Positions 3,365 through 49,916 of a stretch of 64,000 nucleotides of DNA are shown here, in pieces; positions within the stretch are counted from its first letter, which is position 1, and each line of letters begins with the position of its first letter. This DNA is from a bacterium. Its GTDB lineage: Bacteria; Patescibacteriota; Minisyncoccia; Phycocordibacterales; UBA6065. The stretch is from contig JAUXUT010000149.1 in the NCBI GenBank assembly GCA_030680695.1, forward strand, positions 357,000-420,999, read 5' to 3'. Position numbers and translations under genes: made by a program. The notes beneath the pieces are model-generated. The model had not been told where the DNA came from and made no database searches. It saw only the letters and a list, made by a program, of their open reading frames with translations.

Positions 3365-3417
3365 AGGTTTCCTAGTATATACGGAACTTGAAAATTGTAA
3401 AGAAGGGCTGTACCTGG

Positions 3418-4251: not shown

Positions 4252-4264
4252 GGTATGGCGTAGA

Positions 4265-9539: not shown

Positions 9540-9578
9540 TAGGGTATAAGCTAGTTAAAACCCTGGTGCTTTAAGCCT

Positions 9579-10559
9579 TTAAAGAGAAAAATTCTTTATA
9601 GAGTACAGGTCCTCGGTATTTTCATCCTCTTTCTTTTCTTCAACAGAACGGTCATCAACAGGAAGCACTGGTTCGGAAGGAACGCCTGCGGCGACTTCTT
9701 GGGTTAGAGATGGCGGCACGGCCCCTTTAGACTGAACAATGTTCAATATCGCCTTGAGGTCTTCTGGCGAGAAAAAGTCTATGGTGATCTTGCCTCCCTT
9801 TTGTTTCTGCTCGATCGAAACGCGGGTACCAAAAGTTTCGGAAAGTTTTTGTTCCATTTCAAGCATCTCTGGATCGAACATGCGTTCCTTTTTTCGCGCC
9901 TTCTCGACGGCGATTTTGCGAGCGATCATTTCGGTCTCACGTACAGTAAGCCTCTTGGAAAGTATCTCTTTGAAAAGAGTTGACTGCTCTTCAGGTCTGT
10001 CTGAAAGCATAAGAAGCGGTCGTGCATGACCCTCGCTTATCTTCCCTGCCGAAAGCGAGTCAAGGATATCAGTCGGCAAGGCAAGCAAACGTATCGAATT
10101 CGAAACATATTCGCGTGACTTGCCGATTTTCTCGGCGACTTGAACGTGCTTGAGGCCGAATTCAGATACAAGTTGGCTGAACGAACGGGCCCTTTCTACT
10201 GGGTTGAGATCCTCGCGTTGAAGGTTCTCTATGATGGCAAGTTCAAGCTTGACCCGAGCGTCGTCGGTGTTGGCGCGTATTATCGCCGGCACCTGCGGAA
10301 GGCCCAGAAGTTTAGATGCGCGCAGGCGGCGCTCGCCGGATATGAGCTCATACTCAACAACCATGCCTCCGTCTTCTTTATGAATCTCTGTCCTTGTGAC
10401 GGTAAGGGGCTGGAGCAATCCGTACATGCGAATTGACTCGGCAAGGTCACGAAGTGCGGCCTCGTCGAATTCACGACGTGGCTGATATGGGTTCGGACGC
10501 ACCTTGTCGGTGTCTATCCAGAATATCGAGTCTCCAAAAAATTGGGATGGCTGTGGCAT
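9579..10559 (-). CDS. parB: chromosome partitioning protein ParB/Spo0J
   Basis: ISGERRLRASKLLGLPQVPAII is the ParB box, with an HTH and a C-terminal dimerisation region. The true start is the MPQPSQ ATG at 10559; the track's N-terminal extension (…GRDSNPQ…) is the antisense translation of tRNA-Leu. Confidence 0.8.
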   Translation of the reverse strand: MPQPSQFFGDSIFWIDTDKVRPNPYQPRREFDEAALRDLAESIRMYGLLQPLTVTRTEIHKEDGGMVVEYELISGERRLRASKLLGLPQVPAIIRANTDDARVKLELAIIENLQREDLNPVERARSFSQLVSEFGLKHVQVAEKIGKSREYVSNSIRLLALPTDILDSLSAGKISEGHARPLLMLSDRPEEQSTLFKEILSKRLTVRETEMIARKIAVEKARKKERMFDPEMLEMEQKLSETFGTRVSIEQKQKGGKITIDFFSPEDLKAILNIVQSKGAVPPSLTQEVAAGVPSEPVLPVDDRSVEEKKEDENTEDLYSIKNFSL

Positions 10560-10658: not shown

Positions 10659-10739
10659 GCCGAGGTGGCGAAATGGCAACCGCAATCGACTCAAAATCGA
10701 TCGTCGCAAGACTTGAGGGTTCGAGTCCCTCCCTCGGCA
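10659..10739 (+). tRNA. tRNA-Leu (anticodon CAA), class II
   Basis: GCCGAGG acceptor pairs with CCTCGGC; anticodon stem ATCGA/TCGAT with loop CTCAAAA; long variable arm; T-arm GAGGG-TTCGAGT-CCCTC. Confidence 0.8.
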
Positions 10740-10740
10740 C

Positions 10741-11316
10741 ATGATGCATACGCCCAATACAGCCTATATCGTAGGGGTGGCTCTTGGCGACGGGAATCTC
10801 TCTAATCCCAATGGTCGAGCCGTCAGGCTGCGTATAACGTGTGACAAAAAGTACCCGAAGGTTATAGAGAACATACTGATATCATTGAGAGTGGGTCTTC
10901 CTGACAACAAGGTAAGTCTCGTGTATCGGAATGCTCGATGCCTTGATATATCATGTTATTCAAATAAGCTTGAGAACTTACTCGGATGGCGAGCCGATCT
11001 TGGCTCGAAATACCTTCAAAGGGTTCATGTGCCTTCTTGGATATTCAGAGATCCCTGGCTTATCCGACCATGCGTTCGCGGTCTTATAGAGACTGATGGG
11101 TGTGTGTTCACTGACAGGGGCTATACTCATGTCAACTTCACGACTATTATTCCGGAACTAGCGACAGATATGGAAAGAATGCTCACAATTCTGGGATTTA
11201 CGTATTCGACTCAACTAATAATTGCGAAAAGCTCAAATCGTAAGCCAAAATATGTCATAAGGATTTGCAAAAGAGGCAAAGAGTTCGTGGACGAATTTGG
11301 TATAGACAAAAATTAG
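10741..11316 (+). CDS. LAGLIDADG homing endonuclease, two-motif single-chain type
   Basis: VGVALGDGNL and VRGLIETDGCV are the two LAGLIDADG motifs. The ATG lies 1 nt after the tRNA-Leu 3' end. Confidence 0.75.
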   Translation: MMHTPNTAYIVGVALGDGNLSNPNGRAVRLRITCDKKYPKVIENILISLRVGLPDNKVSLVYRNARCLDISCYSNKLENLLGWRADLGSKYLQRVHVPSWIFRDPWLIRPCVRGLIETDGCVFTDRGYTHVNFTTIIPELATDMERMLTILGFTYSTQLIIAKSSNRKPKYVIRICKRGKEFVDEFGIDKN

Positions 11317-14324: not shown

Positions 14325-15479
14325 TTACCGCAAGTATACGCGCGGCAAAAGCGGATTAATACGAGTCACTATCTCGTAATTTATGGTACCTGCTCGCGAT
14401 GCCAGCGCCTCGGCAGATATCGAGGTCTTCCCTTGCTTGCCAAGCAGAACGACCTCGTCACCAGCCTTGACCAACGGAATGTCTGTTACATCAATCACAG
14501 TCATGTCCATCGACACGCGGCCAAGGACCTTTGCAAGCTTGCCGCCGACAAGCACTTCGCCAGAGTTCGAAAGGCTTCGCGGAAAGCCGTGCCAGTATCC
14601 GACAGGTATAACGGCAATGCGTGAATCGCGCGTTGCTTCACATGTGAGATCATATCCGATCAGTGCGCCTTTCGGCACGAGCTTCACTTCGTTCACAATG
14701 GTCTTCCATGACAACACTGGGGTAAGAGAAATGCCAGGTAAGACACGGCGTGAGTGTGCCTCAATTTCTGGTGACGGCCACAAACCATAGATGGCGATGC
14801 CTGCACGAGCCATATCAAAATAATAATCTGGCGAAAAAAGAAGTCCTGAACTCGCAGATGCGTGGGTGATGGGTGTAAAACCTTTTTCGCGCAAACGAAA
14901 AATTACTGATTTAAAAGCCCCCGCCTGCTTGAGCGAATAATCTTCGTGGGCCGGGTCTTCCATCGCCGCGAAATGCGTGTATGCACCTTCGATGATTGCT
15001 TTTGTCTCGAAGGTCTTGCCTTCCATGACACGCACAGCTTGTTGGACTTGAGACTCGGGTATACCTTGGCGATGAAGACCAGTATCGAACTTCACATGGA
15101 TTTTTAAACGCCTGAACAGCTTTGCCTTGGCAAGAGCACGTAGACTGTCGAGGGACGAGATGGTGAGAGATACTCCTTTTTTTGCCGCAGTCTCGTAAAG
15201 TTCAGGCATGGTGAAGCCTAGGACTAGTACTGGTGACTTAATGCCGGAAGTGCGCAATTCCAAAGCTTCAGCGAGCTCGTCTACCGCGATCCAGTCTGCC
15301 CCGCCTTTTAATGCGGCCTTGGCACATTCAACCATGCCATGGCCATAAGCATTGGATTTAACCACAGCCATCATAGCTGCCCTACCAGATAGAGCAGATT
15401 TAAGTACCGCAGTGTTGCGCGCGATTGCGCCAAGATTGACCTCAAGCCATGTACGGTACGACTGAGACTTAATCTTCAT
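14325..15479 (-). CDS. alr: alanine racemase
   Basis: AVVKSNAYGHG is the PLP-lysine motif, within a 385-aa Alr fold. The true start is the MKIKSQ ATG at 15479; the track's extension runs through tRNA-Tyr. Confidence 0.8.
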   Translation of the reverse strand: MKIKSQSYRTWLEVNLGAIARNTAVLKSALSGRAAMMAVVKSNAYGHGMVECAKAALKGGADWIAVDELAEALELRTSGIKSPVLVLGFTMPELYETAAKKGVSLTISSLDSLRALAKAKLFRRLKIHVKFDTGLHRQGIPESQVQQAVRVMEGKTFETKAIIEGAYTHFAAMEDPAHEDYSLKQAGAFKSVIFRLREKGFTPITHASASSGLLFSPDYYFDMARAGIAIYGLWPSPEIEAHSRRVLPGISLTPVLSWKTIVNEVKLVPKGALIGYDLTCEATRDSRIAVIPVGYWHGFPRSLSNSGEVLVGGKLAKVLGRVSMDMTVIDVTDIPLVKAGDEVVLLGKQGKTSISAEALASRAGTINYEIVTRINPLLPRVYLR

Positions 15480-15488
15480 AATATTTTG

Positions 15489-15571
15489 TGCGCCGAGAGG
15501 GACTCGAACCCCCGATGCCCAGTGGGCGGGAGATTTACAGTCTCCTGGAATAGCCGCTATCCGATCGGCGC
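15489..15571 (-). tRNA. tRNA-Tyr (anticodon GTA), class II
   Basis: GCGCCGA acceptor pairs with TCGGCGC; anticodon stem GGAGA/TCTCC with loop CTGTAAA; long variable arm; T-arm GGGGG-TTCGAGT-CCCTC. Confidence 0.85.
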
Positions 15572-15658
15572 ATATGCTGGCAAATACTACTCTATCAGAT
15601 TTCACCAGTGAGGCAAATGAAAAGCCGCCACGTGGCGGCTTTTCCTGGTGACGTCGGA

Positions 15659-22885: not shown

Positions 22886-22916
22886 TTCTTCCCATCGTCC
22901 TAAAATTGGACGATGG
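22886..22916 (+). promoter_or_regulatory. perfect 12-bp stem hairpin sequestering the start codon of the downstream homing endonuclease
   Basis: TTCCCATCGTCC-taaaatt-GGACGATGGGAA; the 3' arm contains the ATG at 22913. Confidence 0.35.
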
Positions 22917-23590
22917 GAATACGACATACAGTAAACGAAGTCTTCTTTAGAGATTGGAACCCGAGGATGGCCTACACACTCGGTTACATATTCGCCGACG
23001 GATGTCTTGAGTATTACCCACGATTCAGACAAAAATATGTATCGATAGCAAGTACAGACAAAGATACACTAGAAAGACTGAGAGACTGGATGGATTCAAA
23101 ACATAGGATATCATCGCGCAAATCACCGCATGCTAATGGTGCTCAAATATTTGTACTCCGAATCGGAAATGCGAGACTCTACGATTCACTTACGCTACGA
23201 GGACTTTATCCGAGAAAATCTCTGACCGTGCCTTTTCCCCAAGTACCAAAAGATATACTCCATCATTTTGTGAGAGGCTACTTCGATGGCGATGGCTGTG
23301 TCGCACTTGAAAAAGTGATAAGAAAATCAGGCGCCATACGTCCACGCAAGCTCAATGTCATATTCACCTCAGGAAGCGAGACCTTTCTTCATAACCTCGC
23401 TTTAGCTCTAGAGCGATTCTCCTGCGTTAAGCCGCAAAATATCATACGAGCGTGGACCGCATTCCAACTGCGGTATTCCACAACAGACAGCGAGGCACTG
23501 TTTCGCTTTATGTATTCGGATGCGACTGACGACGAGTATCTTAAAAGAAAACATGCTATATTCATTGAGCATTTTTCCTTGAAGTCCTAG
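22913..23590 (+). CDS. LAGLIDADG homing endonuclease, two-motif type (second copy, different subfamily)
   Basis: LGYIFADGCL and VRGYFDGDGCV motifs. The stop codon overlaps the first nt of tRNA-Cys. An alternative start at MAYTLGY is possible. Confidence 0.7.
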   Translation: MGIRHTVNEVFFRDWNPRMAYTLGYIFADGCLEYYPRFRQKYVSIASTDKDTLERLRDWMDSKHRISSRKSPHANGAQIFVLRIGNARLYDSLTLRGLYPRKSLTVPFPQVPKDILHHFVRGYFDGDGCVALEKVIRKSGAIRPRKLNVIFTSGSETFLHNLALALERFSCVKPQNIIRAWTAFQLRYSTTDSEALFRFMYSDATDDEYLKRKHAIFIEHFSLKS

Positions 23591-23657
23591 TGGCGAAGCT
23601 GGTTAACGCGACGGTCTGCAAAACCGTTATTCGCCGGTTCGATCCCGGCCTAGGACT
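23584..23657 (+). tRNA. tRNA-Cys (anticodon GCA)
   Basis: GTCCTAG acceptor pairs with CTAGGAC; anticodon stem ACGGT/ACCGT with loop CTGCAAA; T-arm GCCGG-TTCGATC-CCGGC. Confidence 0.85.
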
Positions 23658-23667
23658 CAATAAAATA

Positions 23668-24758: not shown

Positions 24759-26078
24759 ATGAAAAACCAGACCGTGATGGGGATGATCCTGTGGATCTTC
24801 GCCTTCTTCATCGCAGTCGCACTGTCCATCTACTTGATGGGTGTTGCGAACGTGCTCGTCTTAGGGCTCGGGACACTGATTTCACTCCCCTTGTGGGCGT
24901 GGGCAGTGTATCTGAGCGCGAAGACCGATCGACAGTTCACCTTCCGACGCACCGGAGAAATCAAGTTCAGTAAGGACGGCGAGGTGATCGACACGGTCAT
25001 CGCTCACGTCCCAGGGTTCTTCTATGACAAGGAGAACGATCTGATGGTCGAAGAGAAAGGCTCCGCGAACGGGCAGGGCGATGAGACAGACAGTAAGTTC
25101 TCTCGCTTGGTCAAGAAATTGGCCTCGGTCTTCGTGAAGGATGCGAAGAAGGACAAATCGGGCCTCGTGCTCGTGAGTCTCCTTTATCCATACCGCCGGC
25201 TTCACAGCTGGAAGTTCACGTGGACCAAGTTCGCGTCCAAGACACACAGCGAGGCGGGACGGGATCGGGTGTTCGATGATTACCTCATCGAGGAACGGAC
25301 AGAAGATGCGATAAAAAGCCTCTACTTCCAATACATCTACCCGATCGTGGTCAGGGAAATCGACCTCAAGGGCAAGATTCAGATAAAGATCCTGCTCCAG
25401 GTTACCCTCCGCGTGCGAAAGCCGTTGCACATCATCGGCTTTTACAAGGGAAACTTCCTGTCGGCCGTGATATCCGAAATCAAGGGCATTGTGGATAACG
25501 GCGTCGGTCATACCAAGGACATTGATGAATGGTATGCCGAAGACAGGGAGTCCGTCATCGACAAACTCCTGCACCCTTACAAGAACAAACTCTTGCAGGT
25601 GCTCGGGGGTGATCTCGAAATAGTGGACGCGTCCTACGTCAGCTTCGATTTCGACGGACCGAACGCCGAAATCAATCGAAAGGCCGCGTCCCAGAAAGAG
25701 CTTAATCGGCTAGAGGGTGACGGCACCATCGAAAAGGCGACGAAAGAAGCCGAGGCTGAGAAGAAACGGGCCGAACAAGAGATCACGAGGGCCCAGGGCG
25801 CGGCAAGAGCAGCCGAGCATGAGGCAACGGCCATAACGAGCATCGCTGCGGCGAAAGCTGCAGATGTCCGTATGGCTCTCGAGCAAGCGGCAAAGCATCC
25901 CCAGGGCGTGGAATTCCTCCTTGCGCGTGAGCGCACGGCGGCAACCGCTGCCTTCCGTGGCTCCACCCTGATCATGGATGGTTCTCGTGGAGGCGTCATG
26001 GTTTCAGCTGGCGAAAGCAAGCCGACCCAAGGCGAACCCAAGAAGGACAAGAAAGGCGAGAAGGAGGTGTCATCATGA
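24759..26078 (+). CDS. SPFH/band-7 (flotillin/YqiK-like) membrane protein, divergent
   Basis: Two N-terminal TM helices; a central region with a beta-rich core (KGKIQIKILLQVTLRVRKP); a C-terminal EA-rich helix (EAEAEKKRAEQEITRAQGAARAAEHEA...) that resembles the SPFH C-terminal AERE...AEGE region. Confidence 0.45.
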   Translation: MKNQTVMGMILWIFAFFIAVALSIYLMGVANVLVLGLGTLISLPLWAWAVYLSAKTDRQFTFRRTGEIKFSKDGEVIDTVIAHVPGFFYDKENDLMVEEKGSANGQGDETDSKFSRLVKKLASVFVKDAKKDKSGLVLVSLLYPYRRLHSWKFTWTKFASKTHSEAGRDRVFDDYLIEERTEDAIKSLYFQYIYPIVVREIDLKGKIQIKILLQVTLRVRKPLHIIGFYKGNFLSAVISEIKGIVDNGVGHTKDIDEWYAEDRESVIDKLLHPYKNKLLQVLGGDLEIVDASYVSFDFDGPNAEINRKAASQKELNRLEGDGTIEKATKEAEAEKKRAEQEITRAQGAARAAEHEATAITSIAAAKAADVRMALEQAAKHPQGVEFLLARERTAATAAFRGSTLIMDGSRGGVMVSAGESKPTQGEPKKDKKGEKEVSS

Positions 26079-26794
26079 ATCTCTTGAGCCAAACTTCCGC
26101 ATGGATGCTGTGGGTCGCGGTGACCCCCATCGCTGTGGCGATCTTGATAGTCATCATGATGTCCACGGATGCCAAGGATTGGATGAAGTCAACGGTTGCG
26201 GGTCAGACCGCGAACGGCAAAACCATCGCGATCCTCTGTGTCCTGATAACAGCCACGAACTACATCATCTCAAAGTTTAACTACGAGTGGTGGTGGGCGT
26301 TGTGGTTGCATGGACCGTTCTTCATGGTTAACCTTGCCATATTGCTGGGCTGCTGGATTAGCATGTCTACCTTCGGGAAACTCGCGAAGGTGGGCGCTGT
26401 CATCATGGTAGCCTTCGCTCTGGCGGGTTGGATCAAGGTTGCTGTCGAGTCGCCGACCAGGGCCGAGATTGCGGCCCAAGCTTCGGAAAGACAACAAGCG
26501 CAAGTCATGGTCCCAACCTTCCAACGAATCGAGGACACCATCCAAGTCCGCAAGGGCGAATGGTCTCACCCGATTGTTGCTGGCGACATCATTCAGATTC
26601 AGTCGGTCACCGGTCTATACGTTCGGTATGATGGGAAAGGCACCGGAAAGCCTATGGCGCCCGGGGTCAAGAACATCATCCCGTTCGAGGCGGTGATGCA
26701 GGAAGTCCGGTCAACCGACCAGGCCTTCTGGATCAAATATTGGCGCGTGGTGCCCACAACGGCACTGGGTGGCGATGATGATCCACTAGACTGA
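26075..26794 (+). CDS. NfeD-like membrane protein (4 TM plus C-terminal beta-barrel), SPFH partner candidate
   Basis: ATGA overlap with the upstream gene. Four TM helices, then RKGEWSHPIVAGDIIQIQSVTGLYVRYDG, which resembles the NfeD C-terminal GE-x-W...G-x-V-x-V motif. Confidence 0.4.
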   Translation: MNLLSQTSAWMLWVAVTPIAVAILIVIMMSTDAKDWMKSTVAGQTANGKTIAILCVLITATNYIISKFNYEWWWALWLHGPFFMVNLAILLGCWISMSTFGKLAKVGAVIMVAFALAGWIKVAVESPTRAEIAAQASERQQAQVMVPTFQRIEDTIQVRKGEWSHPIVAGDIIQIQSVTGLYVRYDGKGTGKPMAPGVKNIIPFEAVMQEVRSTDQAFWIKYWRVVPTTALGGDDDPLD

Positions 26795-26814
26795 AACTGT
26801 TCTTTAGTCAGGCA

Positions 26815-26846
26815 AAGGCCGCGCATTCTATGCGCGGCCTTTTTTC
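26815..26846. terminator. strong bidirectional terminator between the SPFH/NfeD operon and the pilin-like array
   Basis: GGCCGCGCAttctaTGCGCGGCC followed by TTTTTT. Confidence 0.65.
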
Positions 26847-26862: not shown

Positions 26863-27111
26863 CTACACCCCAAGCGTTCGTTCGAGGACTGCGATAATCC
26901 CCCACACCGAGATCATGATGAAGAGACCGACGGTGCTCCAGAGGATATGATTCTTACCCTGAGTGCGATCTGCGTCGCCGTCACCTTTGATGAAGTAGAC
27001 GTAAACTCCGTAGATGAAGTATACGATCGCGGCCGCAAACATAAGCTGGACGAGCGGATTGACCACTGCGGCAAAGAAGCTCCGTACCAGATCGTTATCG
27101 GTCGCATTCAT
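26863..27111 (-). CDS. small two-helix membrane protein, paralog 1 of the TrbC/VirB2-like family (no signal peptide)
   Basis: FAAAIVYFIYGVYVYFIKGDGDADRTQGKNHILWSTVGLFIMISVWGIIAVL shares the C-terminal helix-G[DE]xxG-x-AK-x-I-x-IIGLF-x-W-x-L module with the four upstream paralogs. Confidence 0.4.
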   Translation of the reverse strand: MNATDNDLVRSFFAAVVNPLVQLMFAAAIVYFIYGVYVYFIKGDGDADRTQGKNHILWSTVGLFIMISVWGIIAVLERTLGV

Positions 27112-29048: not shown

Positions 29049-30332
29049 TTACTGGTTAGTCCTAATGATAGAGTCTATCTCTGAGCTCGCCGCCGATACT
29101 GCTTGGCTCGCACGATAACGACCACTCGTCACGTTATCGACGAGCCTCTCGAATACAATATTGGTCGCTTCACGGTTCGGATCAAGCCACGCTCTGGCCA
29201 TTAAAGCACTGCGGTAGAAAACGGCCGTATATGCGCTTCCAGGTGTCGAGGCCAAGAGGTCTCGACGTACAGGCGGAAGGCCAGATTTTGATGCCCATAG
29301 ATTCTGGAGGTTCGAACCAGTCAAGATTGCCGCGGCTGATACTGATGGACCGATATTCGGCGAACTCTTCAGAAAAGCGAAGGCTGTCATATGACCGAAA
29401 GTTGCAGTCCTACCCGAGGCTTGTGGTATGACTGCAACATCGAAATTCAAGTTTGGGTTGGCAGACCTGATGCCCTGAAGTTCACTCGCATAGCCAAAAT
29501 ACATGGCAAGCTTCCCCGCTATAAACATGTCACGGTCGTTCATAAGCGAGCGATTCCATGTATAAGCTGGCTTTGATGGATTGGAGAACTCCGTAAAGAA
29601 ATTAATGGCCTGCTCGCCAGGAACTTGTCCTTGGCTCACACCGAATACGCTCGTCACTATGCCGCGGGCGTCGCGGGCAACGATCGGCGTTCCTGCTTGC
29701 ATCGAAAGCAGGGCGAGCATATCTTTGTAGTGGACGATATTCGCGGACGATCCCATGGCCACCATCGCTTGTGATATGCCTCCACCAACATCTTTCTTAA
29801 TTACTTTCGGGGCGAGCGCATAAAGTTCATTCCAAGTGGTCGGCGGGAGGCTTACGCCCGCCTCGCCGAATATCTCACGGTTCCAATACATAACCATTGG
29901 ATTGACCGAGAACGGCAAACCGATGACCCCGCCTGGGACGAGGTAGAGCTCGCTTCCCTCTATGAATGAATCCTTGAAGGTGCGTTCGGAATAGTTCTCG
30001 AACGGAACGACGAAAAACTTGTCTGCCTGCTTGAGGATGAGGTCCTGTGGCCAGAGAACCATGTCTGGACCCTGTCCGCGAGCCAATGATGCAATCAGTT
30101 CGGATTCGAAAGTCGCGGCCTGTTTTTGGACATATACGACGTTAAGCTGGTCTCGGTACTCGAGCCTTGCATCGCCGAGAAATCCCGACATGAGGCTATG
30201 TGGGAAAGTGCCCCACAACACAACCTGGGGCGCCTCACCAGAATTATTTGTGCGGTTTAGGGCGAAGAGCGCCACGCCGAAGACTGCGCATGCGATGAGT
30301 ACTCCGGTGAATATAAGTTGAAAGCGTGACAT
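29049..30332 (-). CDS. membrane-anchored extracellular solute-binding protein (ABC-type family 1 fold), orphan
   Basis: N-terminal TM; LVPGGVIGLPFSVNPMVMYWNREIFGEAGVSLPPTTWNELYALAPKV matches the family 1 SBP hinge region. No permease or ATPase genes are adjacent. Confidence 0.55.
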   Translation of the reverse strand: MSRFQLIFTGVLIACAVFGVALFALNRTNNSGEAPQVVLWGTFPHSLMSGFLGDARLEYRDQLNVVYVQKQAATFESELIASLARGQGPDMVLWPQDLILKQADKFFVVPFENYSERTFKDSFIEGSELYLVPGGVIGLPFSVNPMVMYWNREIFGEAGVSLPPTTWNELYALAPKVIKKDVGGGISQAMVAMGSSANIVHYKDMLALLSMQAGTPIVARDARGIVTSVFGVSQGQVPGEQAINFFTEFSNPSKPAYTWNRSLMNDRDMFIAGKLAMYFGYASELQGIRSANPNLNFDVAVIPQASGRTATFGHMTAFAFLKSSPNIGPSVSAAAILTGSNLQNLWASKSGLPPVRRDLLASTPGSAYTAVFYRSALMARAWLDPNREATNIVFERLVDNVTSGRYRASQAVSAASSEIDSIIRTNQ

Positions 30333-30338
30333 GTGGCC

Positions 30339-30866
30339 TTATTGCTTGCGGAATATCATACCATAATGGTGCGCCCCGGCCGTAAACTCGCGATCGAAAG
30401 CGAAACCAGTCTCGTGTGCGAGCTTCATGGCGTCGTCCTTGTACACGACATGACCTGGATGTGGGCCAATCTGCCCAAACGATCCGGACCACTCAATAAG
30501 CATGAACTTCCCTTTTTGCTTGAGGATGCGTTTTGCCTCCAAGAAAAATGTTTTCTTGTCTTCGAGCATGAACAGAATGTTTGATGCGATACAAGCGTCA
30601 ACCGAAACATCACGAATCTTAGAGCCACCGAGTTTCTCGAGATCCCCTGCAATCACATCGATATTACGAATATGTTGTCGTTGGGCTTCTTTCTTGAGCC
30701 TGTCGAGAAGATCTCGTTGAACGTCCACAGCGTAAACCTTACCCGTTGGGGCGACGGCCTTGGCGGCGGCGAGACTATAAAAGCCAGAACCTGCACCAAG
30801 ATCCGCAACAATGTTTCCGTCAGATAAACCTGCCTCTTCGACGTTTCGCTCGGGATTGCTGAACAT
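30339..30866 (-). CDS. class I SAM-dependent methyltransferase
   Basis: VADLGAGSGFYSL is motif I (GxGxG), with a Rossmann-like succession over 175 aa. Confidence 0.7.
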   Translation of the reverse strand: MFSNPERNVEEAGLSDGNIVADLGAGSGFYSLAAAKAVAPTGKVYAVDVQRDLLDRLKKEAQRQHIRNIDVIAGDLEKLGGSKIRDVSVDACIASNILFMLEDKKTFFLEAKRILKQKGKFMLIEWSGSFGQIGPHPGHVVYKDDAMKLAHETGFAFDREFTAGAHHYGMIFRKQ

Positions 30867-30889
30867 GCTTAAAGTATAGCAAATATAGA

Positions 30890-30921
30890 AAAGAAAAAGG
30901 CCCGCTCTTGCGCGCGGGCCT
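30890..30921 (-). terminator. terminator after the 30936-32171 gene
   Basis: The minus strand reads GGCCCGCGCGcaagaGCGGGCC followed by TTTTTCTTTTC. Confidence 0.6.
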
Positions 30922-30935
30922 CGACAAAATAACTT

Positions 30936-32171
30936 TTACCGCACATACACTATCCGTAGCGGCTTGCCATCGGCACGGGGCCTCGGCAGCCAGAACTGTG
31001 CCTTTTGGACGTCTTCGGGCAGGTTGATGACCGTCGTCGGCACCCCATCAATGATGACCGTCGATAAATGCATCTCGATTGGCTCACTGATGATGGGCTT
31101 CCTGGCGAACCACGGACTGAAGTCCATGGTCACGTAGACGCCGCGCGGGTCATCGATAATCACCCTGCCTTGATCGACCGCCCGCTTGCTGAACCAACGT
31201 GGATTCACGTTGTCGCCGGGACCGTAGACCAACTCCTGGCGCTTGCCCATCAGACGATCGGCGTCCGCGAAGACCCGGCCCGAATGAACGGGCGCCGGCT
31301 CGACAACTGGAACAGGTGCCGGGACTGGCTTTGGCTGCTCGACCGCTGGTGCCGGTGCTGGCTCTGGTTCTACCTTAGGAGCAGGCTCAGGTTGTGCAAC
31401 GGGTACTGGCGGATCAGGACGCTTGAACAGCTCGAGGAACTCCGCGAAGAGACCTCTCGCCTTAGCAGCATCTTCCGCCGTCGAAGCACTGGTTGTTTCA
31501 ATCTCGACGGCAGCAGCGTGAACATCATCGATTTTGCCGATGATTTCATCCTTGGACCGATTGACGGCTTCAATGGTCGCGTTGGCACGACCGTCGGCTA
31601 CTTCGCTCTGTTCAACCAAGATCGTTCCAATATCCTTCTTGAGCGACACGAGGCCCTTCTCGACGGACGTGACGACCCGGCTGCCGCTGAGGCTGCCTAT
31701 GACCACGATCACGAAGGTGCAGGCGAGCATGACGGACGAGAGACCAATGAACCAGGGCCAGAAAGGCCGCGACTTGTTCTTCTCGACACAAGCACAGGTC
31801 ACTGCGTTCTCTTGAGAGTTGGTATCTCGAGAAGCACCGATGCTGGCCTTGATTTCCTTGACTGCGCCGTCGATCTTTTCGTCGATTTTCGCTTCGAGGG
31901 TGGCCTGCAAGGTCCCGACGGCTTCGGTCGCCGCACTGGCTTCGGCCCTGGTCTTTTCAACTTCACCTTCAAGGCTCCCGATGGATTCATTGACCTCTTT
32001 GAATCCTTTTTTAATGAGAACCTCTTGGGCATGCTGTTTCTTGACGAACGCCATGAAGGGCTTGCGCCCCTTGACGGAGATTTCCTTCGCGAGATCACGA
32101 AGAAAGGTTCTGGTGACGGTCCGGGACGGACCAGCATCTTCTGCGGTTGGCATATGTATGTGGGGTTTCAA
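30936..32171 (-). CDS. hypothetical single-pass membrane protein with a Pro-rich (PxP) linker and C-terminal extracytoplasmic domain
   Basis: Cytoplasmic coiled-coil N-region, TM helix FWPWFIGLSSVMLACTFVIVVIG, a PEPAPKVEPEPAPAPAVEQPKPVPAPVPVVEPAP linker, and a ~115-aa C-domain with no recognised motif. Confidence 0.35.
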   Translation of the reverse strand: MKPHIHMPTAEDAGPSRTVTRTFLRDLAKEISVKGRKPFMAFVKKQHAQEVLIKKGFKEVNESIGSLEGEVEKTRAEASAATEAVGTLQATLEAKIDEKIDGAVKEIKASIGASRDTNSQENAVTCACVEKNKSRPFWPWFIGLSSVMLACTFVIVVIGSLSGSRVVTSVEKGLVSLKKDIGTILVEQSEVADGRANATIEAVNRSKDEIIGKIDDVHAAAVEIETTSASTAEDAAKARGLFAEFLELFKRPDPPVPVAQPEPAPKVEPEPAPAPAVEQPKPVPAPVPVVEPAPVHSGRVFADADRLMGKRQELVYGPGDNVNPRWFSKRAVDQGRVIIDDPRGVYVTMDFSPWFARKPIISEPIEMHLSTVIIDGVPTTVINLPEDVQKAQFWLPRPRADGKPLRIVYVR

Positions 32172-32285: not shown

Positions 32286-32306
32286 AAAAACCGCCTTGCG
32301 GCGGTT
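32286..32306 (-). terminator. terminator after gyrA
   Basis: The minus strand reads AACCGCCGCAAGGCGGTT followed by TTTTGTATT. Confidence 0.55.
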
Positions 32307-32318
32307 GTCAATTCCAAA

Positions 32319-34808
32319 CTACAGACAAACAACGGATGCGAGCGAATCCCCGTCACGCAATTTCATTATACGCACACCCTGGGTCGAGCGACCGAGGACT
32401 GGGATTTCGGCGAGCGAGACACGAACAACCTGCGATTTCTTGGACATCGCAACGAGCTCGCTGTCTTCTTCGGTGACAACCTTGGCCGATATAATTGGCC
32501 CGGTCTTATCGGTGCAATTCATTGTGAGAATTCCTGATCCGCCGCGACCCTGGGTCTTGTACTCGCTCATCTCGGTGGTCTTGCCGTAGCCATTCTTTGA
32601 TATGACCATGAGGCGAGTGCCCTTGGCGCCGGCCTTCACAACATCGGCGCTGATAACTGTGTCACCTTTGGCAAGATTGATGCCGCGGACACCCATGGCA
32701 GAACGTCCCATCTCGCGCACGTCGGCTTCCTCGAACCTGATTGACTGGCCGTCGGCTGTAACAATAGAAACGTCGTTGCCTTTAGACGAGAACGATGCGG
32801 ATGTGAGCGCGTCGCCTGGTTCAAGGGTGATGGCGATGATGCCAGATCGGCGCACATCGTGGAACGATTCTGCTTTCACCTTCTTCACTGTTCCCTGCTT
32901 GGTAACCATCATAATAGAAAGTTCTGTCGAACCCTTGGTCGCCTTCGGCATGGAAAGAATTGATGTGACCTTCTCGTTGTCGGCAAGCGACAAGAAATTC
33001 ACAAGGGCCTTGCCCTTGGTCGCACGGCGGCCTTCTGGGAGCTCGTACATCTTGATCTGATATGCCTTCCCCTTGTCTGTAAAGAAGAGCATATCAGCAT
33101 GGGTGTTCGCGGTGACGAGGTTTGTGACGAAATCCTCTTCCTTTGTATCAAGGTCGATTACGCCAACACCGCCGCGTTTCTGTTTGCGGTACTCATCCGG
33201 CATGGTTCGTTTAACATATCCGCCCTGGGTGAGCACGAGCACATTTTCGACGTCTGGAATAAGGTCTTCGTCAGACATGGCTTTCACGCCGCCCTTGATG
33301 ACACGTGTGCGACGTTCATCGCCGAACTTTGCCTTGATGTCGGCGAGCTCTTGTTTGATAACGCCGAGGATTTTCTTCGGCGAGGCGAGAAGTGCTTTCA
33401 ATTCCTCGATAAGAGCCTGGACAGATTTGAGTTCATCCTCAACTTTCTTGCGCTCAAGTCCTGCGAGCTTTTGGAGGCGCATGTCGAGAATTGCCTGGGC
33501 CTGAAGGACCGAGAACTTGAAGGTTTTCATGAGACCAGCCTTGGCATCTTCAACGGACGCAGACTTGCGGATCAGTTTGATGATCTCGTCTATGTGGTCG
33601 AGGGCTTTCTTGAGGCCAAGCAAGATGTGTTCACGAGCCTCGGCAATGCGAAGATCGTATGCGCTGCGGCGTTTAACCACCTCGATGCGGTGCTCGATGA
33701 AGTTTTCAAGAATAGTCTTGAGGGCAAGAGTTTCTGGACGACCCTTCACGAGGGCGACGATGTTCAAATGGAACGTATCTTCGAGTTGAGTGTGCTTGAA
33801 CAGGAAGTTAAGAATCTTCTGTGGATGTGAACCTTGTTTAAGATCAATAACGATACGAATGTCTTTTGCAGATTCGTCGCGGAGGCCCTTGATGCCTTCG
33901 ATTTTCTTTTCGCGGACGAGGTTTGCGATATTAACGATGAGGTCGGCCTTAATCACGCGATATGGAATCGATGTGATGATAATTTGGAACTGGCCAGCCT
34001 TGTTCTCGACGATTTCAGCGTCGCCACGTGTGACGATGCCGCCCTTTCCAGTAGTATATGCGTGATGAATATCTTTTTCGCCGTAAATATTTCCGCCCGT
34101 AGGAAAGTCAGGTCCTTTTATAAATTGTAGAAGGTCCTCGGTTGAAGCGTCCTTGTTTTCAATAAGATGAGTCGTCGCATCAATGACTTCGCTCAGGTTA
34201 TGCGGAGGAATGTTCGTTGCCATTCCCACTGCGATACCAAGAGTACCGTTGAGAAGAAGATTGGGAACGGCTGTTGGTAGAACCGTAGGCTCCTTCTTTG
34301 TGTTGTCGTAGTTCGGACGGAAGTCCACTGTTTCCTTCTCGAGGTCTTTGAGAAGTTCACCTGCGAGGCGCGACATTTTAGCCTCGGTGTATCGGTACGC
34401 GGCCGCACCGTCACCGTCGATCGATCCGAAGTTTCCTTGGCCGATGACGAGTGGATATCGCATCGAGAAATCCTGGGCCATTTTCACCATCGCCTCGTAC
34501 ACAGACGAGTCACCGTGCGGATGATATTTACCGAGCACGTCTCCCACGATCGTCGCAGACTTTTTTGTCTTGGCTGATGCGGTGAGACCGATGTCGTTCA
34601 TCGCATACAAAATACGGCGGTGAACGGGTTTTAGTCCGTCGCGAACATCAGGAAGCGCGCGAGCCGTAATGACGGACATCGCGTAGTCGAGATACGACTC
34701 GCGCATCTCTGTAACTATCGAGCGTGCCTGTATGCCCTTCTCTTCGAACGGCAGCTTTGGATCCGGCGTGGCGGCCGAGGGATTGGAATTGGGATTCTTT
34801 GGGCTCAT
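32319..34808 (-). CDS. gyrA: DNA gyrase subunit A
   Basis: [15 protein letters not shown] active-site Tyr region, plus a C-terminal beta-pinwheel, over 829 aa. Confidence 0.95.
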
Positions 34809-45539: not shown

Positions 45540-46472
45540 CTATTTAAACAATCCCAGAAACACAATCGGATCCACAGACACTTCGTTGATACGGACGGTC
45601 AGATGCAGGTGTGCGGCCTCTGCATATCCCGTCTGCCCTGCCATGCCGATACGATTGCCGCGGCGAATCTTCTCGCCTTGCGCAACATCGATACGCGAAA
45701 GGTGCATATAAAAAGTCTGGACGCCTAGGCCGTGGTCTATGACGACAGTCTTGCCATAATTTCTTCCTTCCTGGACGAGCCGTACGATGCCGTCATTCAT
45801 GGCGAGAACCGGCGTGGTTTCGTTCGCACGGAAATCAGTGCCTTTGTGCGTGATGTTTTGGCCGACCGTGCTTCGCGAATATCCGTAATCGTCGGTTATG
45901 ATTGAATCCTTCAACGGATACGAGAAAGGTTTGTTCCACAATGACTGTGGCGCGGTCTCAAGGCCGAGGAGGCCCTTATTCTCTTGTTCAAGGGTGTTAA
46001 CGAGCGTCGTCGCGGCCGCAGGTGTATTGCCACCAAGCTTGGCTGGTATGCCAAAAGGTGCCTCGATTTTCGGGCGCTGATTCAGACGGATGTGCGAGCG
46101 AACGATGCGGCCGTCTGCAAATGATACGAGCACGGTCGATGTGGCTGGTTTTTCTTTTATATCAGAGCCATACAACGCCCAGGTCGCACCGTCGTATTCG
46201 AAGGGTGAGAGGACCTTTGGGCCGAGCATGATGTACCTGACGGACGCATCATCGGCACGGGCGACCATGACGGCGATTGGCTGACCCTGAATGGGGTTTT
46301 CTGGGTAGAACGAAACTATAGGCGCGGCAACTGGGGCGGCAGAGGCGATAGAGGCAGTAGAAGCGAAAATAATCGATATGAGGGCGACTGGGAGCATACT
46401 CGTATTATACGCGAACAGAAAAGCCGCCCGGTGATGGGCGGTTTTTCTTTTCATCAGCAGGCATCGTATCAT
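45540..46472 (-). CDS. secreted M23-family peptidase (LytM-like)
   Basis: Signal peptide; HKGTDF...VVIDHGLGVQTFYMHLSRIDV...GQTGYAEAAHLHLTV carries the M23 H-x-x-x-D and H-x-H motifs. Confidence 0.8.
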   Translation of the reverse strand: MIRCLLMKRKTAHHRAAFLFAYNTSMLPVALISIIFASTASIASAAPVAAPIVSFYPENPIQGQPIAVMVARADDASVRYIMLGPKVLSPFEYDGATWALYGSDIKEKPATSTVLVSFADGRIVRSHIRLNQRPKIEAPFGIPAKLGGNTPAAATTLVNTLEQENKGLLGLETAPQSLWNKPFSYPLKDSIITDDYGYSRSTVGQNITHKGTDFRANETTPVLAMNDGIVRLVQEGRNYGKTVVIDHGLGVQTFYMHLSRIDVAQGEKIRRGNRIGMAGQTGYAEAAHLHLTVRINEVSVDPIVFLGLFK

Positions 46473-46474
46473 GC

Positions 46475-47167
46475 CTAGTTCCTCTTGTCGCTTATGACCC
46501 TACCATCGTCGAGCTTCACCACGCGCTTGGCGAGCATACTGTATTCTTCTTCGTGGGTGACCATAATAATAGTCTGTCCTTGGGCGTGAATTTCCTCGAA
46601 AAGCTCCATGACCGTGCGCGAAGATTCATTGTCGAGGTTCGCGGTCGGTTCGTCTGCGAATAGTATCTGAGGCTTATGAGCCAAGGCACGGGCAACAGAC
46701 ACGCGTTGCTGTTCGCCTCCAGAAAGCTGCCCAGGGAGGTTTGTAAACCTGTGACCAAGGCCAACGCGTTCCAATGCTGTGTGGGCTTCCGTATAGGCGA
46801 CCATTTTGGACTTGCCTTGCATCATGAGAGGCAGTGCGACGTTCTCTTCTGCGGTGAGGTCCGGCAGAAGGGCGTAATCCTGGAATACATATCCGAGCTG
46901 ATTAAGACGGAACATGGTTTTCTCGTCCGGCGTCATGGCGTGGGTGTCGGTACCGAATACTATGATCTCACCTGACGTTGGCTCATCAAGGAGCGACAAC
47001 TGATACAAAAAGGTGGATTTACCTGCGCCCGATCGTCCGATGATGGCGATGAATTCCCCTTCCTCGACAGTGAAGTCTATGCCCTTCAATACGTGCGTTT
47101 CTTTATCGCCGTTCTTGAACGATTTTGTGAGGCCGCGTACTTCTATGAGTTTATTCTTGTATTTCAT
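46475..47167 (-). CDS. ABC transporter ATP-binding protein (MacB/FtsE/LolD type)
   Basis: IIGRSGAGKSTFL Walker A, LSGGEQQRVSVARAL signature and ILFADEPT Walker B. The true start is MKYKNK at 47167; the track's 47224 start would overlap the permease by 44 nt. Confidence 0.85.
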   Translation of the reverse strand: MKYKNKLIEVRGLTKSFKNGDKETHVLKGIDFTVEEGEFIAIIGRSGAGKSTFLYQLSLLDEPTSGEIIVFGTDTHAMTPDEKTMFRLNQLGYVFQDYALLPDLTAEENVALPLMMQGKSKMVAYTEAHTALERVGLGHRFTNLPGQLSGGEQQRVSVARALAHKPQILFADEPTANLDNESSRTVMELFEEIHAQGQTIIMVTHEEEYSMLAKRVVKLDDGRVISDKRN

Positions 47168-47180
47168 GGCTTTGGTATGA

Positions 47181-48428
47181 CTAGTTTCGTCCAAGGATAG
47201 AATCGAGGATATTCTTGCGCACAATCATACGAGCCGGTATGTATCCCGCAATGATAGTGGTAAAGACAAGAAGAGCGATGCGCAACATAGTCCCGTCGAG
47301 CGGCGCGACCAAGATGCCGTCGGAGAACGGAAAGTTAATCGGATTAGCCGCGATGTACGGCTGGAGAATAACGTACAGCACGAAAAGTCCAATGGACGAG
47401 CCGATGACCGCGTAAAATATCGACTGGAAAACATATGACGTTTCAATCGCTGTGCCGCTGATGCCGATTCCCTTCATGATACCGATGAACTTGCGGCGCG
47501 TGATGGCGTTTATGAAGATGACGATGAATATCGTAATCGAGGCGACGGCAAGACCGATCGAGCTGATCATGTTTCCGAGAAGGGCGAATGTGGCCTTGAT
47601 ATCTTGAAGAAACTTCGGCTGGGCATCCTCGAAAGTCTGGACGCGAGCAAACTCCCCCACGCCGGATCTGATTAAGCTGTCACGAACGACTACCGCACTG
47701 GCGCCAGGTTTTAGTTTGATGGATATTTCATCTACGTTATAGTCACCGCGGCCGATGAGCGAGCGGAACTGAGAATCGACCATAAAAACGCGGAATGCGA
47801 GTTCGTCTACTTTTGCTTGAATAATGCCCTTCACTGTGACTTCGCGCGTGATGCCGTTGACCGTAATGCGCACCTTGTCGCCGATATTGATGTCAGAAAG
47901 AGTTGTAAAGCCTGGTGATTCAATCGGCAAGTATTTTTTCAAAAGGTTGGCGCCGATAAGTACCTGATCATAATCGCCAGGTTCAAGGTATTCACCCTCG
48001 ACGATAAAGCGAGAAAGGTTAGTGGTCTGGTCTTCGGCCACAGGGTCAATGCCCACGAAACTACCGCCCGCGCGCTCGATCTCGTCTGGGTCTATCGCCT
48101 CTTTATAATGAGCTTCGATCGTGCCACCCTGCAGGTATCGGGCCGCAAAAACCTGCGCCTCGGGCAACGCCGCGACAATCGAAAGTACCTGCGGACTTTG
48201 CTCGATATAATCCTTCTTCGGCAGGTTAGATATGATGACGTCGCTCGTATAATAAATCTTGTTCGCCTCGACTGCGCCTTCGATCAAGCCAACAAGCACA
48301 CCAGACACCACCACAAGATTAAGGAATGTGAGTGCCATCACAAAAACGATAAGACTTGTTGTCCATATGCTCGCCCTGCGCACCTGGCGCAATGCGAGAA
48401 AGAATCCTATACGTATAAATTGAGGCAT
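47181..48428 (-). CDS. ABC transporter permease (FtsX/MacB-like, large extracytoplasmic loop)
   Basis: N-terminal TM, a ~230-aa periplasmic domain and three C-terminal TM helices, which is the FtsX-like topology. Confidence 0.7.
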   Translation of the reverse strand: MPQFIRIGFFLALRQVRRASIWTTSLIVFVMALTFLNLVVVSGVLVGLIEGAVEANKIYYTSDVIISNLPKKDYIEQSPQVLSIVAALPEAQVFAARYLQGGTIEAHYKEAIDPDEIERAGGSFVGIDPVAEDQTTNLSRFIVEGEYLEPGDYDQVLIGANLLKKYLPIESPGFTTLSDINIGDKVRITVNGITREVTVKGIIQAKVDELAFRVFMVDSQFRSLIGRGDYNVDEISIKLKPGASAVVVRDSLIRSGVGEFARVQTFEDAQPKFLQDIKATFALLGNMISSIGLAVASITIFIVIFINAITRRKFIGIMKGIGISGTAIETSYVFQSIFYAVIGSSIGLFVLYVILQPYIAANPINFPFSDGILVAPLDGTMLRIALLVFTTIIAGYIPARMIVRKNILDSILGRN

Positions 48429-48446
48429 GTGGTGATATTACTCTTC

Positions 48447-49916
48447 CTATTTCGCAGGATTAAGGAATATTGTTTCGCCTTCCGTGAGCCCGGACAAAAC
48501 CTCGACGTTGCCGCGGGAATCGGTCGAACCTGTAACTACGATGCGCTCTTGCGCGGACTCGGTCGCCATAAAGACAATTTTCTGGCCATCACGGTCGAGC
48601 ACGGCACGAGAAGGAACCATGACAGTCTCTGGCTTGCGTAGGGTTTCAATCGAAACGTTGGCCGTCATACCAGGGCGAACACGTATGTCCGACTCCTTGA
48701 AAGCGAGTTCGATTTTGTAGTTTGAGACACCATCACGAACGGTCTCAGCAGGATCAATATGCGACACTGTCGCAAAGAACTTTTCTGTCGAGCCATAGGC
48801 GTCGAGGGTGATTTCCGCCTCGTTGCCAATGCGTATACCAGCGATCGAAACCTCTGGCACAAAGGCTTCTATTTTCAGGTCTGGGCTTATAACAGAAACA
48901 AGGGTAGCGTTCTGTGACACAGTCTCGCCCACTTTCGCATCCTGACGCGATACGATGCCGGCAAACGGCGCACGAATAGTGGTGTCAGAAAGCTGGGCGC
49001 GATATGCGGCCACGTTCGCCTCGGCAGCAGCCACGCGGGCGGCTTGCACCGACACATCCGAAAATACGCCGCTCACACGGTCGGTCTGGGATGCGAGATC
49101 GGTGAGGGCTGAGTTCACAGCACTGCGGGCCGATGCAATGTCGGTGCGATATTTATCAATAGTCGCCTGGGTAAGATTCGAATTTGTCTCCATGGTGTTG
49201 ACCGCTATCGCTACATCGTTCAGAAAAGCCACAACGGTCGCACCATATGACTTGGACAAGGCGAGTGCCTCGGCCGCACCAGCAGAATTATTGCCGATGG
49301 TCGCTGCAAGCAAAGACCAACGTGTAAAAACGTCCTCGACATCAATACGGGAGGAGTTAATCCTCATGCGTAGTTCATATCCCTTGAATGACGGCATGAT
49401 TTCTGGGTTTTGAGAACTCGGATTGGTGAAAAGCTGGTCCACCTTGTTGTGGACGGCGTCATCAGCCGCCGTATAGGCGGTGACAATTTTCTGGGCGGTT
49501 TCACCCTGAACGTTATCAACCTTGGCCGCGCCCGTCGAACCAGTCGTACCAACCGAACCACCCTGGAGGGCCGAGAGCTCGGCACGCGCCGCGACGAGAT
49601 CAGATTCGGCCTTCAAAAGATTCGCAGCCACGCTCGCCTTGTCGAGTTCGACGATTGCCTCGCCTGCCCTGACCGAATCTCCCACTGATTTATTCACACT
49701 AGACACAGTGCCACCTGCGGTAAAGGCGAGGTTGGCACTCTGGCGAGAAACCACCTTGCCCGATACGCGCACAGATCGCACAAGGTCCCCTTTTGCGACG
49801 ACGGCCGTTTCTCGCTTACCATTACCATCACCAGTAAACGCAAAGCCCGCTATCGCAAGCACGATGATAATAGCGCCAATAACCAGTCCTTTCTTGCCTT
49901 TAAAGTATTTCTTCAT
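48447..49916 (-). CDS. HlyD/MacA-family periplasmic adaptor (membrane fusion protein)
   Basis: N-terminal TM, biotinyl/lipoyl-like hairpin, long coiled coil and beta-barrel. The C-terminal region TVMVPSRAVLDRDGQKIVFM is typical of membrane fusion proteins. Confidence 0.65.
   Translation of the reverse strand: MKKYFKGKKGLVIGAIIIVLAIAGFAFTGDGNGKRETAVVAKGDLVRSVRVSGKVVSRQSANLAFTAGGTVSSVNKSVGDSVRAGEAIVELDKASVAANLLKAESDLVAARAELSALQGGSVGTTGSTGAAKVDNVQGETAQKIVTAYTAADDAVHNKVDQLFTNPSSQNPEIMPSFKGYELRMRINSSRIDVEDVFTRWSLLAATIGNNSAGAAEALALSKSYGATVVAFLNDVAIAVNTMETNSNLTQATIDKYRTDIASARSAVNSALTDLASQTDRVSGVFSDVSVQAARVAAAEANVAAYRAQLSDTTIRAPFAGIVSRQDAKVGETVSQNATLVSVISPDLKIEAFVPEVSIAGIRIGNEAEITLDAYGSTEKFFATVSHIDPAETVRDGVSNYKIELAFKESDIRVRPGMTANVSIETLRKPETVMVPSRAVLDRDGQKIVFMATESAQERIVVTGSTDSRGNVEVLSGLTEGETIFLNPAK

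Follow-up and report, generated by a model that had tools for sequence, protein, structure and literature searches.

What does a sugar-type solute-binding protein do in a locus that offers no transporter for it? The question is raised by a 64-kb stretch of DNA (hereafter the window; ~51% GC) from a member of the class Paceibacteria (Patescibacteria, or candidate phyla radiation, CPR). On its minus strand, downstream of gyrA, lie genes for a membrane protein with a proline-rich stretch (PxP), a class I S-adenosylmethionine (SAM)-dependent methyltransferase (MT), a membrane-anchored family-1 solute-binding protein (SBP) and five members of the T4SS_pilin family (PF18895). A sequence-only reading of the same DNA had called SBP, MT and PxP, and all three open reading frames (ORFs) are present on this strand where it placed them. 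We propose, tentatively and with slightly less than even confidence, that the SBP serves a VirB2-type envelope structure as its partner for ligand recognition and is not the receptor of a neighbouring ATP-binding cassette (ABC) importer.

The SBP was assigned to its family using both sequence profiles and structure prediction. It matches Pfam SBP_bac_1 (E 1.3e-18, 68.5 bits against a cutoff of 26) and SBP_bac_8 (E 5.5e-18, 66.2 bits against a cutoff of 27). Its AlphaFold2 (AF2) model has a pLDDT of 87 and a pTM of 0.83, and the best Foldseek matches to that model are the oligosaccharide SBPs 5ci5, 4r9g, 5ysf and MalE (E ~1e-21), with TM-scores of 0.65-0.74 and 15-20% identity in the structural alignments; matches labelled as other proteins were maltose-binding protein (MBP) fusion constructs. 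A profile built from 22 homologues gave as its best PDB match 4r9f, the mannooligosaccharide-binding CpMnBP1 (E 2.7e-18). Model and Foldseek matches together point to a two-lobed type II periplasmic-binding-protein fold, and the SBP models as an oligosaccharide-type CUT1 binding protein, with ligand binding itself a prediction. Structure prediction had been suggested as a way to the ligand class. It yielded the oligosaccharide type and no specific ligand, since manno-, gluco- and malto-oligosaccharide binders obtain similar Foldseek scores and the model superposes on manno-, sophoro- and malto-oligosaccharide receptors. The SBP belongs to a large, distinct family: among 1.84 billion representatives, 1,712 clusters formed at 50% identity reach E<=1e-30 against the profile, and the best 150 listed clusters are near full-length matches, mostly starting within the first few residues.

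Conservation within the globular domain is consistent with predicted ligand binding. Of the 57 columns that are invariant among the 22 sequences, eight are Trp and many are Asp, Glu, Asn, Gln or Arg, and Tyr also counts among the invariant residues. The positions that align with MalE D65 and E111 appear to hold conserved acidic residues. The fold fits either contact or nutrient uptake, as do the polar and aromatic residues that are conserved where binding canonically takes place. A conventional explanation is that the SBP is an ordinary importer receptor whose CUT1 permeases and ATPase are encoded elsewhere in the genome, its place in a pilin operon being a historical accident preserved by slow change in gene order. 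The SBP_bac_1 match is canonical, the fold is MalE-like, the closest structures are all transporter receptors, and acidic as well as aromatic residues seem to be conserved at the MalE-aligned positions; each of these speaks for that explanation.

The N-terminus raises a different point. The segment MSRFQLIFTGVLIACAVFGVALFAL forms a predicted helix in the AF2 model (residues 3-25). Within it, LIAC (residues 12-15) fits a lipobox, but Cys15 varies among homologues, so we regard the N-terminus as a transmembrane (TM) anchor without a lipobox, in agreement with the sequence-only reading. A class III (prepilin) signal peptide was also considered and rejected, the N-terminus M[ST][RK]FQ[LI]I having no [KR]-[GA] cleavage motif. 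The fraction of the top residue is 0.58 in the TM anchor, 0.57 in the globular part and 0.34 in the linker (residues 26-35), and F4, Q5, G19 and F23 of the anchor are nearly invariant. TM-anchored SBPs are normal in monoderms and would as such suit an importer receptor. A conserved TM helix is nevertheless unexpected in a simple anchor, and conservation to this degree is unusual for a passive one.

The SBP gene is the second gene of what is probably a single seven-gene, terminator-bounded operon, MT-SBP-pil1 to pil5 (30866 to 26863, minus strand; Table 1). Spacers along this series are 6, 4, 3, 1, 90 and 3 nt, and a hairpin scan found no terminator-like hairpin between MT and pil5. Because the spacers are short and the terminators lie only outside, we take these seven genes as the transcription unit and PxP as standing alone; the spacing also suggests co-translation. 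Translational coupling of MT and SBP had been claimed previously. In this genome the two genes lie close together without overlapping, the MT stop being 6 nt before the SBP ATG; in L084 (L numbers denote individual related loci) they overlap by 4 nt. On the other side of the SBP, pil1 starts 4 nt after the SBP stop, a junction as tight as that between MT and SBP.

The five consecutive PF18895 genes (E 3.5e-6 to 2.8e-11) form a tandem VirB2-like array. Judging from the translations, pil1 to pil4 have a signal peptide and a C-terminal two-TM hairpin, and pil5 has no signal peptide. In pil1 a ~65-aa disulfide-type ectodomain with two conserved Cys lies between signal peptide and hairpin, and the protein is recognizable by the motif FQ(L/I)V.C...C following the signal peptide; pil2 is recognizable by NPL before TM1. 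These types keep their rank across related genomes, with pil1-type proteins first in 57 of 75 arrays, pil2-type second in 56 and pil5-type last in 56. The middle positions are occupied by one to four copies of pil3/pil4 type, pil4 being the middle or penultimate type. In close relatives pil5 attains the highest identity of any pilin (up to 63%), with a median of 39% that is similar to that of pil4. The pilins constitute a fixed, ordered and non-redundant set of paralogues with deep positional orthology and no recent amplification. In the clade nearest to the window, extra pilin genes were seen upstream of MT, between gyrA and a PxP-like gene, in three relatives (L001 7832-8299 (+), L003 7583-8053 (+) and L013), and L008 has two pilins upstream on the opposite strand; the window itself has no extra upstream pilin.

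VirB2-like arrays of 2-11 genes are known from Patescibacteria (PMC12102498). A VirB2-like pilin array is essential in a Saccharibacterium, and in Southlakia epibionticum an essential pilin series is located within a type IV secretion system (T4SS) cluster (PMC10633639, PMC12857230). In enrichment cultures with methanogens, the T4SS pilins rank with the most strongly expressed of all secreted Paceibacteria genes (PMC10936435). Pfam detected no VirB4, VirB6 or VirD4 domain in our 64-kb window, and when the ten unlabelled ORFs of greatest length in the related loci were scanned singly, none contained VirB4. Since no T4SS ATPase was found in the window or in the flanks of relatives, the pilin array is stand-alone in these genomes. 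Proximity to virB4 is in any case no strict criterion for such arrays, since a pilin lies near virB4 in 1135 of 1948 assemblies (PMC12102498).

The association between SBP and pilins extends well beyond this genome. At least 546 SBP matches were present in one-genome-per-species contigs, and the best 80 loci (SBP identity 39-62%) were analysed. Their record labels include Taylor-, Zambryski-, Wolfe- and Campbellbacteria and Paceibacterota, and many carry the generic 'uncultured Candidatus Saccharibacteria'. Using tblastn, the order S1(-), MBL, gyrA, MT, SBP and 4-8 pilins was recovered nearly everywhere, with IF2(-) farther downstream and the operon usually just downstream of gyrA. The same gene order was obtained from independent gene calls and precomputed Pfam assignments for L081, L083 and L084. 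Of the 72 loci with flanking sequence, 71 have a pilin gene no more than 1.2 kb beyond the SBP on its downstream side; the exception, L031, has a 541-aa insertion. The first pilin starts a median of 4 nt after the SBP stop, and in 17 loci the two genes overlap by 4 nt. The link between the SBP and the pilin-like array, noted before on this one stretch, is supported by these counts. MT, whose pairing with the SBP had been put forward for a homology search, is directly upstream of it in 64 of 73 loci. In three loci (L026, L057 and L073) adjacency to gyrA is lost and MT, SBP and pilins are still together. Median identities to the window over the 80 loci are 70% for gyrA, 48% for MT, 43% for SBP and 31-41% for the pilins.

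The position of the SBP ahead of the pilins, together with its conserved TM helix, could also indicate a sensor of a sugar cue comparable to ChvE-VirA of Agrobacterium, or a membrane protein that acts as chaperone or nucleator when pilins are inserted and polymerised, its ligand binding having become secondary or been lost. There are precedents for both roles, in that TraQ and TraX are accessory factors from pilin operons and the SBP sensor ChvE controls a T4SS. No sensor kinase or regulator was found in the conserved neighbourhood, however, and the conserved Trp, Tyr, Asp, Glu, Asn and Arg of the globular domain argue for retained ligand binding. We consider such a role highly improbable.

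The transporter partners of a CUT1 receptor were searched for in the window and around its homologues. Pfam scans of the window covered ORFs of at least 150 aa not nested within other genes, and among these no BPD_transp_1 permease was detected. The sole ABC ATPase found in the window belongs to a MacB-type ABC_tran/FtsX/HlyD set at 46475-49916. The previous statement that no partner permease or ATPase lies within 20 kb of the SBP is thus borne out, and holds for the whole window apart from the MacB-type set. The stretch that includes this set (45540-49916, minus) encodes an HlyD-like protein, an FtsX permease and the ABC ATPase, then an M23 peptidase, in a monoderm without an outer membrane. 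For the relatives, all ORFs of the 80 loci were clustered and 137 unlabelled representatives of at least 240 aa were scanned against Pfam. The families listed for them are a housekeeping mix, and neither BPD_transp_1 nor ABC_tran nor a T4SS ATPase was among them within ~10 kb in the 80 loci.

Published annotations of the class were consulted as additional support. In Table S4, the permeases given for three Paceibacterales metagenome-assembled genomes (MAGs) are ABC-2 and FtsX/MacB-type proteins and one iron-complex permease only, with no type-I importer, and the table also includes peptide/nickel and amino-acid SBPs (PMC10936435). PF00528 does not occur in the portion of the annotation table used, nor do the SBP families PF13416 and PF01547 in the portion of the supplementary tables used (PMC10936435). 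Because these tables, to the extent covered, name SBPs and no PF00528 permeases, orphan SBPs may be general in Paceibacteria. Two further observations concern SBPs of another type. A family-5 (peptide/nickel-type) SBP (E 5e-66) was present in one related locus, with no permease seen, and a peptide/nickel-type SBP occurs in the three Paceibacterales MAGs without listed Opp permeases and is highly expressed in one of them.

In the mechanism that we favour, the SBP would be made together with the pilins of its operon and would work with them, supplying the lectin or receptor part of a VirB2-type envelope structure whose assembly would fall to a T4SS encoded at another site. At the membrane or at the pilus base it would bind an oligosaccharide that is derived from the host or lies on the host surface, by which glycan recognition or capture would be coupled to the pilin structure, and the ligand would not be passed to an ABC importer next to it. 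Contact with the pilin hairpins would probably be made by the conserved TM helix of the SBP.

Several points weigh against this mechanism. The whole region, from S1, MBL and gyrA through to IF2, is syntenic across the class, so that adjacency is weaker evidence for shared function than it would be in freely rearranging genomes. The presumed co-translation of SBP and pilins is drawn from gene spacing. The 64 kb covered here belong to a 649-kb contig whose remainder could encode permeases and ATPases, and the scan of the 137 ORFs covers the top 25 families listed, behind which weak matches could be hidden. The SBP also retains the features of a working transport receptor. To our knowledge no VirB2 pilus has been seen in Paceibacteria, and we know of no T4SS that uses a family-1 SBP.

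The synteny also bears on the importer-receptor explanation, which it favours, as the unrelated housekeeping genes around the locus are syntenic too. The link between SBP and pilins does exceed this background, because the SBP-pil1 junction is tight, insertions spare the core and the core outlives adjacency to gyrA. A historical accident would have to account for that junction (median 4 nt) and that persistence. It would further have to account for the setting of the gene, given that CUT1 SBP genes almost always adjoin permeases and that none was found within ~10 kb in 80 genomes or in the 64-kb window, and for the three Paceibacterales MAG tables, which have no type-I importer permeases despite other SBPs. 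On balance we regard an ordinary importer receptor as unlikely.

Uptake could also depend on the SBP and proceed without an ABC transporter, with the SBP and the two-TM pilins, with or without a T4SS inner-membrane platform, importing a host-derived glycan or glycoconjugate. Judging from the same tables, canonical importers seem to be lacking in the class. An ordered, non-redundant set of 4-8 hairpin proteins co-encoded with an SBP would suit such a device, and VirB2-type machinery does import in the archaeal Ced/Ted systems and in Helicobacter ComB. The Saccharibacterial T4SS and pilin array are essential and are without recognizable coupling or relaxase proteins (PMC10633639). However, an SBP that feeds a T4SS or VirB2 assembly would be without precedent, the operon encodes no energy source, and the idea rests wholly on gene context. 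Uptake of this kind strikes us as improbable.

The locus was compared with known systems that share some of its parts. The Patescibacterial VirB2 arrays (Southlakia epibionticum ML1 T4SS locus; Quinonero-Coronel et al. 2025) are alike in having tandem divergent PF18895 genes, signal peptides and two-TM hairpins in a monoderm CPR cell. The present array differs in that no VirB4 was found in 64 kb or in relatives' flanks, in that it adjoins gyrA, in being headed by an SBP and usually by MT, and in showing positional orthology in place of lineage-specific amplification. CUT1 SBPs (CpMnBP1 4r9f/4r9g, MalE and the beta-1,2-glucooligosaccharide SBP 5ysf) share the SBP_bac_1/SBP_bac_8 domains, two lobes and conserved acidic and aromatic residues at presumed cleft positions with our protein, which differs from them by its 15-20% identity, its conserved TM anchor, its coupling to a pilin operon and the fact that no importer genes were found nearby.

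The closest functional analogy is the Sulfolobus bindosome (Bas; PMC3047682), in which surface deployment of sugar-binding proteins is likewise tied to co-encoded pilin-like proteins. There, SBPs and pilins carry class III signal peptides that are cleaved by PibD, and assembly is PilB/PilC-like (BasABC, BasEF). In contrast, the pilins studied here are of VirB2 type, the SBP has no prepilin motif, and neither an assembly ATPase nor a platform is encoded in the locus; moreover, the Sulfolobus SBPs still serve ABC transporters. Membership in the bindosome was rejected on signal-peptide type, pilin type and assembly genes. The type IV fimU-pilVWXY1E cluster of Pseudomonas also combines ordered, non-redundant pilin paralogues with one large non-pilin ligand-binding protein. 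This is an analogy only, since it belongs to another filament superfamily and PilY1 is no SBP and is without a TM anchor. In the Agrobacterium ChvE-VirA pair, a sugar-binding SBP is functionally tied to a VirB2-containing T4SS; ChvE, however, is a soluble protein whose gene accompanies those of its own ABC transporter, and it signals via a sensor kinase, whereas no kinase is present here. Neither the papers cited here on pilin arrays nor full-text literature searches connected an SBP or a methyltransferase with such arrays. As far as searched, the parts are known (CUT1 SBP, VirB2 arrays, class I methyltransferase), and their conserved combination, the stand-alone position beside gyrA and the orthology of the pilins are undescribed.

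The first gene of the operon encodes a Rossmann-fold methyltransferase domain with the glycine-rich motif I (DLGAGSG in sequence). MT matches Methyltransf_31, _11 and _25 above the gathering score (E 1e-17 to 1e-15), and reaches no NCBIfam subfamily (UbiE, ArsM, PrmC and others), the best, ArsM-like, scoring 77 bits where the cutoff is 263. The closest solved structure, 3dh0, is annotated as of unknown function. Homologues number 834, and the best 120 are 62-82% identical and mostly 175 aa long (range 174-213). Nearly all named sources among these 120 are Paceibacteria or Patescibacteria, with one labelled Nitrososphaera sp., and many MT homologues sit on contigs equal in size to those of SBP matches. 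MT is a cytoplasmic accessory enzyme, dispensable in ~12% of lineages. That it modifies pilins or the SBP is only a guess; pilin-modifying enzymes encoded in pilin operons have precedents in TraX and PilD. The nine loci without MT are Zambryskibacteria-like, among them L040 and the equivalent genomes L030, L045, L051, L055, L056 and L078. In L040 an IS200/RAYT-like gene (9208-9936 (-); HUH motif PNHFHLLV) is situated between gyrA and the SBP gene, on the opposed strand.

The features of the locus are collected in Table 1. The hairpin that ends the operon is common to it and to the convergent gene 26075-26794. The candidate -10 element next to MT, if real, could give a transcript with almost no leader; the consensus scan called no full sigma-70 site there. 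A search for RNA elements ahead of the operon, made with Rfam at gathering thresholds, gave only tRNAs in the window.

Table 1. Genes and candidate signals between gyrA and the end of the pilin operon, in window coordinates
Feature	Position	Strand	Basis or remark
gyrA	32319-34808	minus	
Terminator-like hairpin after gyrA	32289..32306	minus	
PxP, single-pass membrane protein, 411 aa	30936..32171	minus	ORF
Terminator-like hairpin between PxP and operon	30897..30922	minus	9-bp stem, 7 GC pairs, then TTTTCTTTTCT
Candidate extended -10 element TGCTATACT, 6 nt upstream of MT ATG	30873..30881	minus	Read from sequence
MT, class I SAM methyltransferase, 175 aa, first operon gene	30339..30866	minus	Pfam
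SBP, membrane-anchored family-1 (CUT1-type), 427 aa, second operon gene	29049..30332	minus	Pfam, AF2, Foldseek
pil1, VirB2-like pilin, 183 aa	28493..29044	minus	PF18895 E 5.5e-8
pil2, VirB2-like pilin, 143 aa	28058..28489	minus	PF18895 E 1.3e-10; TrbC E 5e-6
pil3, VirB2-like pilin, 160 aa	27574..28056	minus	PF18895 E 3.5e-6
pil4, VirB2-like pilin, 122 aa	27115..27483	minus	PF18895 E 1.2e-10
pil5, minimal VirB2-like pilin, 82 aa, last operon gene	26863..27111	minus	PF18895 E 2.8e-11
Bidirectional terminator-like hairpin ending operon	26814..26842		13-bp stem, 8 GC pairs, T-run flank

PxP lies outside this core. From its TTG start it has the length given in Table 1, and the public annotation begins at Met7 (405 aa). 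A TM helix at ~137-160 is flanked by helical or coiled segments and followed by a Pro-rich stretch of ~45 residues (~250-296) and a C-terminal region of ~115 aa. This architecture, and the terminator of its own (30922-30897), agree with what had been described from the letters of the sequence. Placing PxP in one module with the SBP was not borne out, given that terminator, the low identity in the closest relative and the lack of a tblastn match in the 80 related loci. Among 5.8 billion proteins the self-match alone was returned; NCBIfam and PHROG gave no match, and the best Pfam hit, DUF948, was sub-threshold at 20.7 bits against 37.2. The closest relative, L081 (SBP 72% identical), has a 427-aa orthologue at the same position, found by position, that is 25% identical over 251 residues (E 1e-14), with the Pro-rich linker not conserved. 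L001 and L003 have one or two genes of PxP architecture here (TM, coiled coil, Pro-rich linker and ~100-aa C-domain). A single-sequence AF2 model of PxP reached a pLDDT of 44 and was unusable. PxP is a fast-diversifying envelope or surface protein confined to the closest subclade, and not a core member.

From the other side, two overlapping membrane-protein genes (24759-26078 (+) and 26075-26794 (+)) converge on the pilin operon. Their products have no match in Pfam, NCBIfam or PHROG, and the 439-aa product of the pair is kept at the same position in 21 related loci. Elsewhere in the related loci, two unlabelled ORFs match Band_7/SPFH, and L067, a Patescibacteria contig, encodes a 939-aa protein (2288-5107 (-)) in which shoulder and repeat domains of the Major Vault Protein were recognized (E 2e-22), which is unexpected outside eukaryotes.

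The remainder of the window is rich in housekeeping genes: serS, dprA, topA, parB, miaA, alr, clpB, infB and gyrA, together with an rpsA-like S1 gene, pth, hisS, ftsA, ftsZ, the MacB-type efflux set, a P-type ATPase gene, tsaD and leuS. Two LAGLIDADG_3 ORFs are next to tRNA genes. One (10741-11316 (+)) starts 1 nt after tRNA-Leu(caa) 10659-10740, and the other (22913-23590 (+)) ends in or at tRNA-Cys 23584-23658, the head of a four-tRNA cluster. Several related loci have LAGLIDADG homologues in the corresponding position near infB, and these ORFs may be what remains of homing endonucleases associated with tRNA loci. The alanine racemase ORF as called from GTG (14325-15605 (-)) overlaps a predicted tRNA-Tyr (15488-15571 (-)), and its true start is probably farther downstream. 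A 1296-aa protein (60070-63960 (-)) combines a domain of the Peptidase_S74 type (endosialidase chaperone) with strong matches to PHROG tail fibres (E 4e-45), and L040 has a similar 983-aa counterpart. In this CPR genome the protein is either a surface fibre resembling phage tail fibres or what is left of a prophage.

A large part of bacterial diversity belongs to the CPR/Patescibacteria, which live on other cells and whose host recognition and nutrient uptake are poorly understood. No ligand or partner has yet been assigned to their abundant and highly expressed VirB2-like arrays, and a soluble SBP ectodomain co-encoded with such an array offers a way to find out by experiment what the system engages. 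The locus also adds to hints that SBPs of Paceibacteria work without canonical ABC importers; if true, a very old fold would have been put to a new use. A bolder conclusion, which we hold to be improbable, is that the SBP and the VirB2-type pilins make up a new import or contact machine, the SBP capturing a host glycan and the pilins or T4SS serving as conduit or contact. If that were true, it would provide a molecular function for the enigmatic essential pilin arrays of CPR bacteria.

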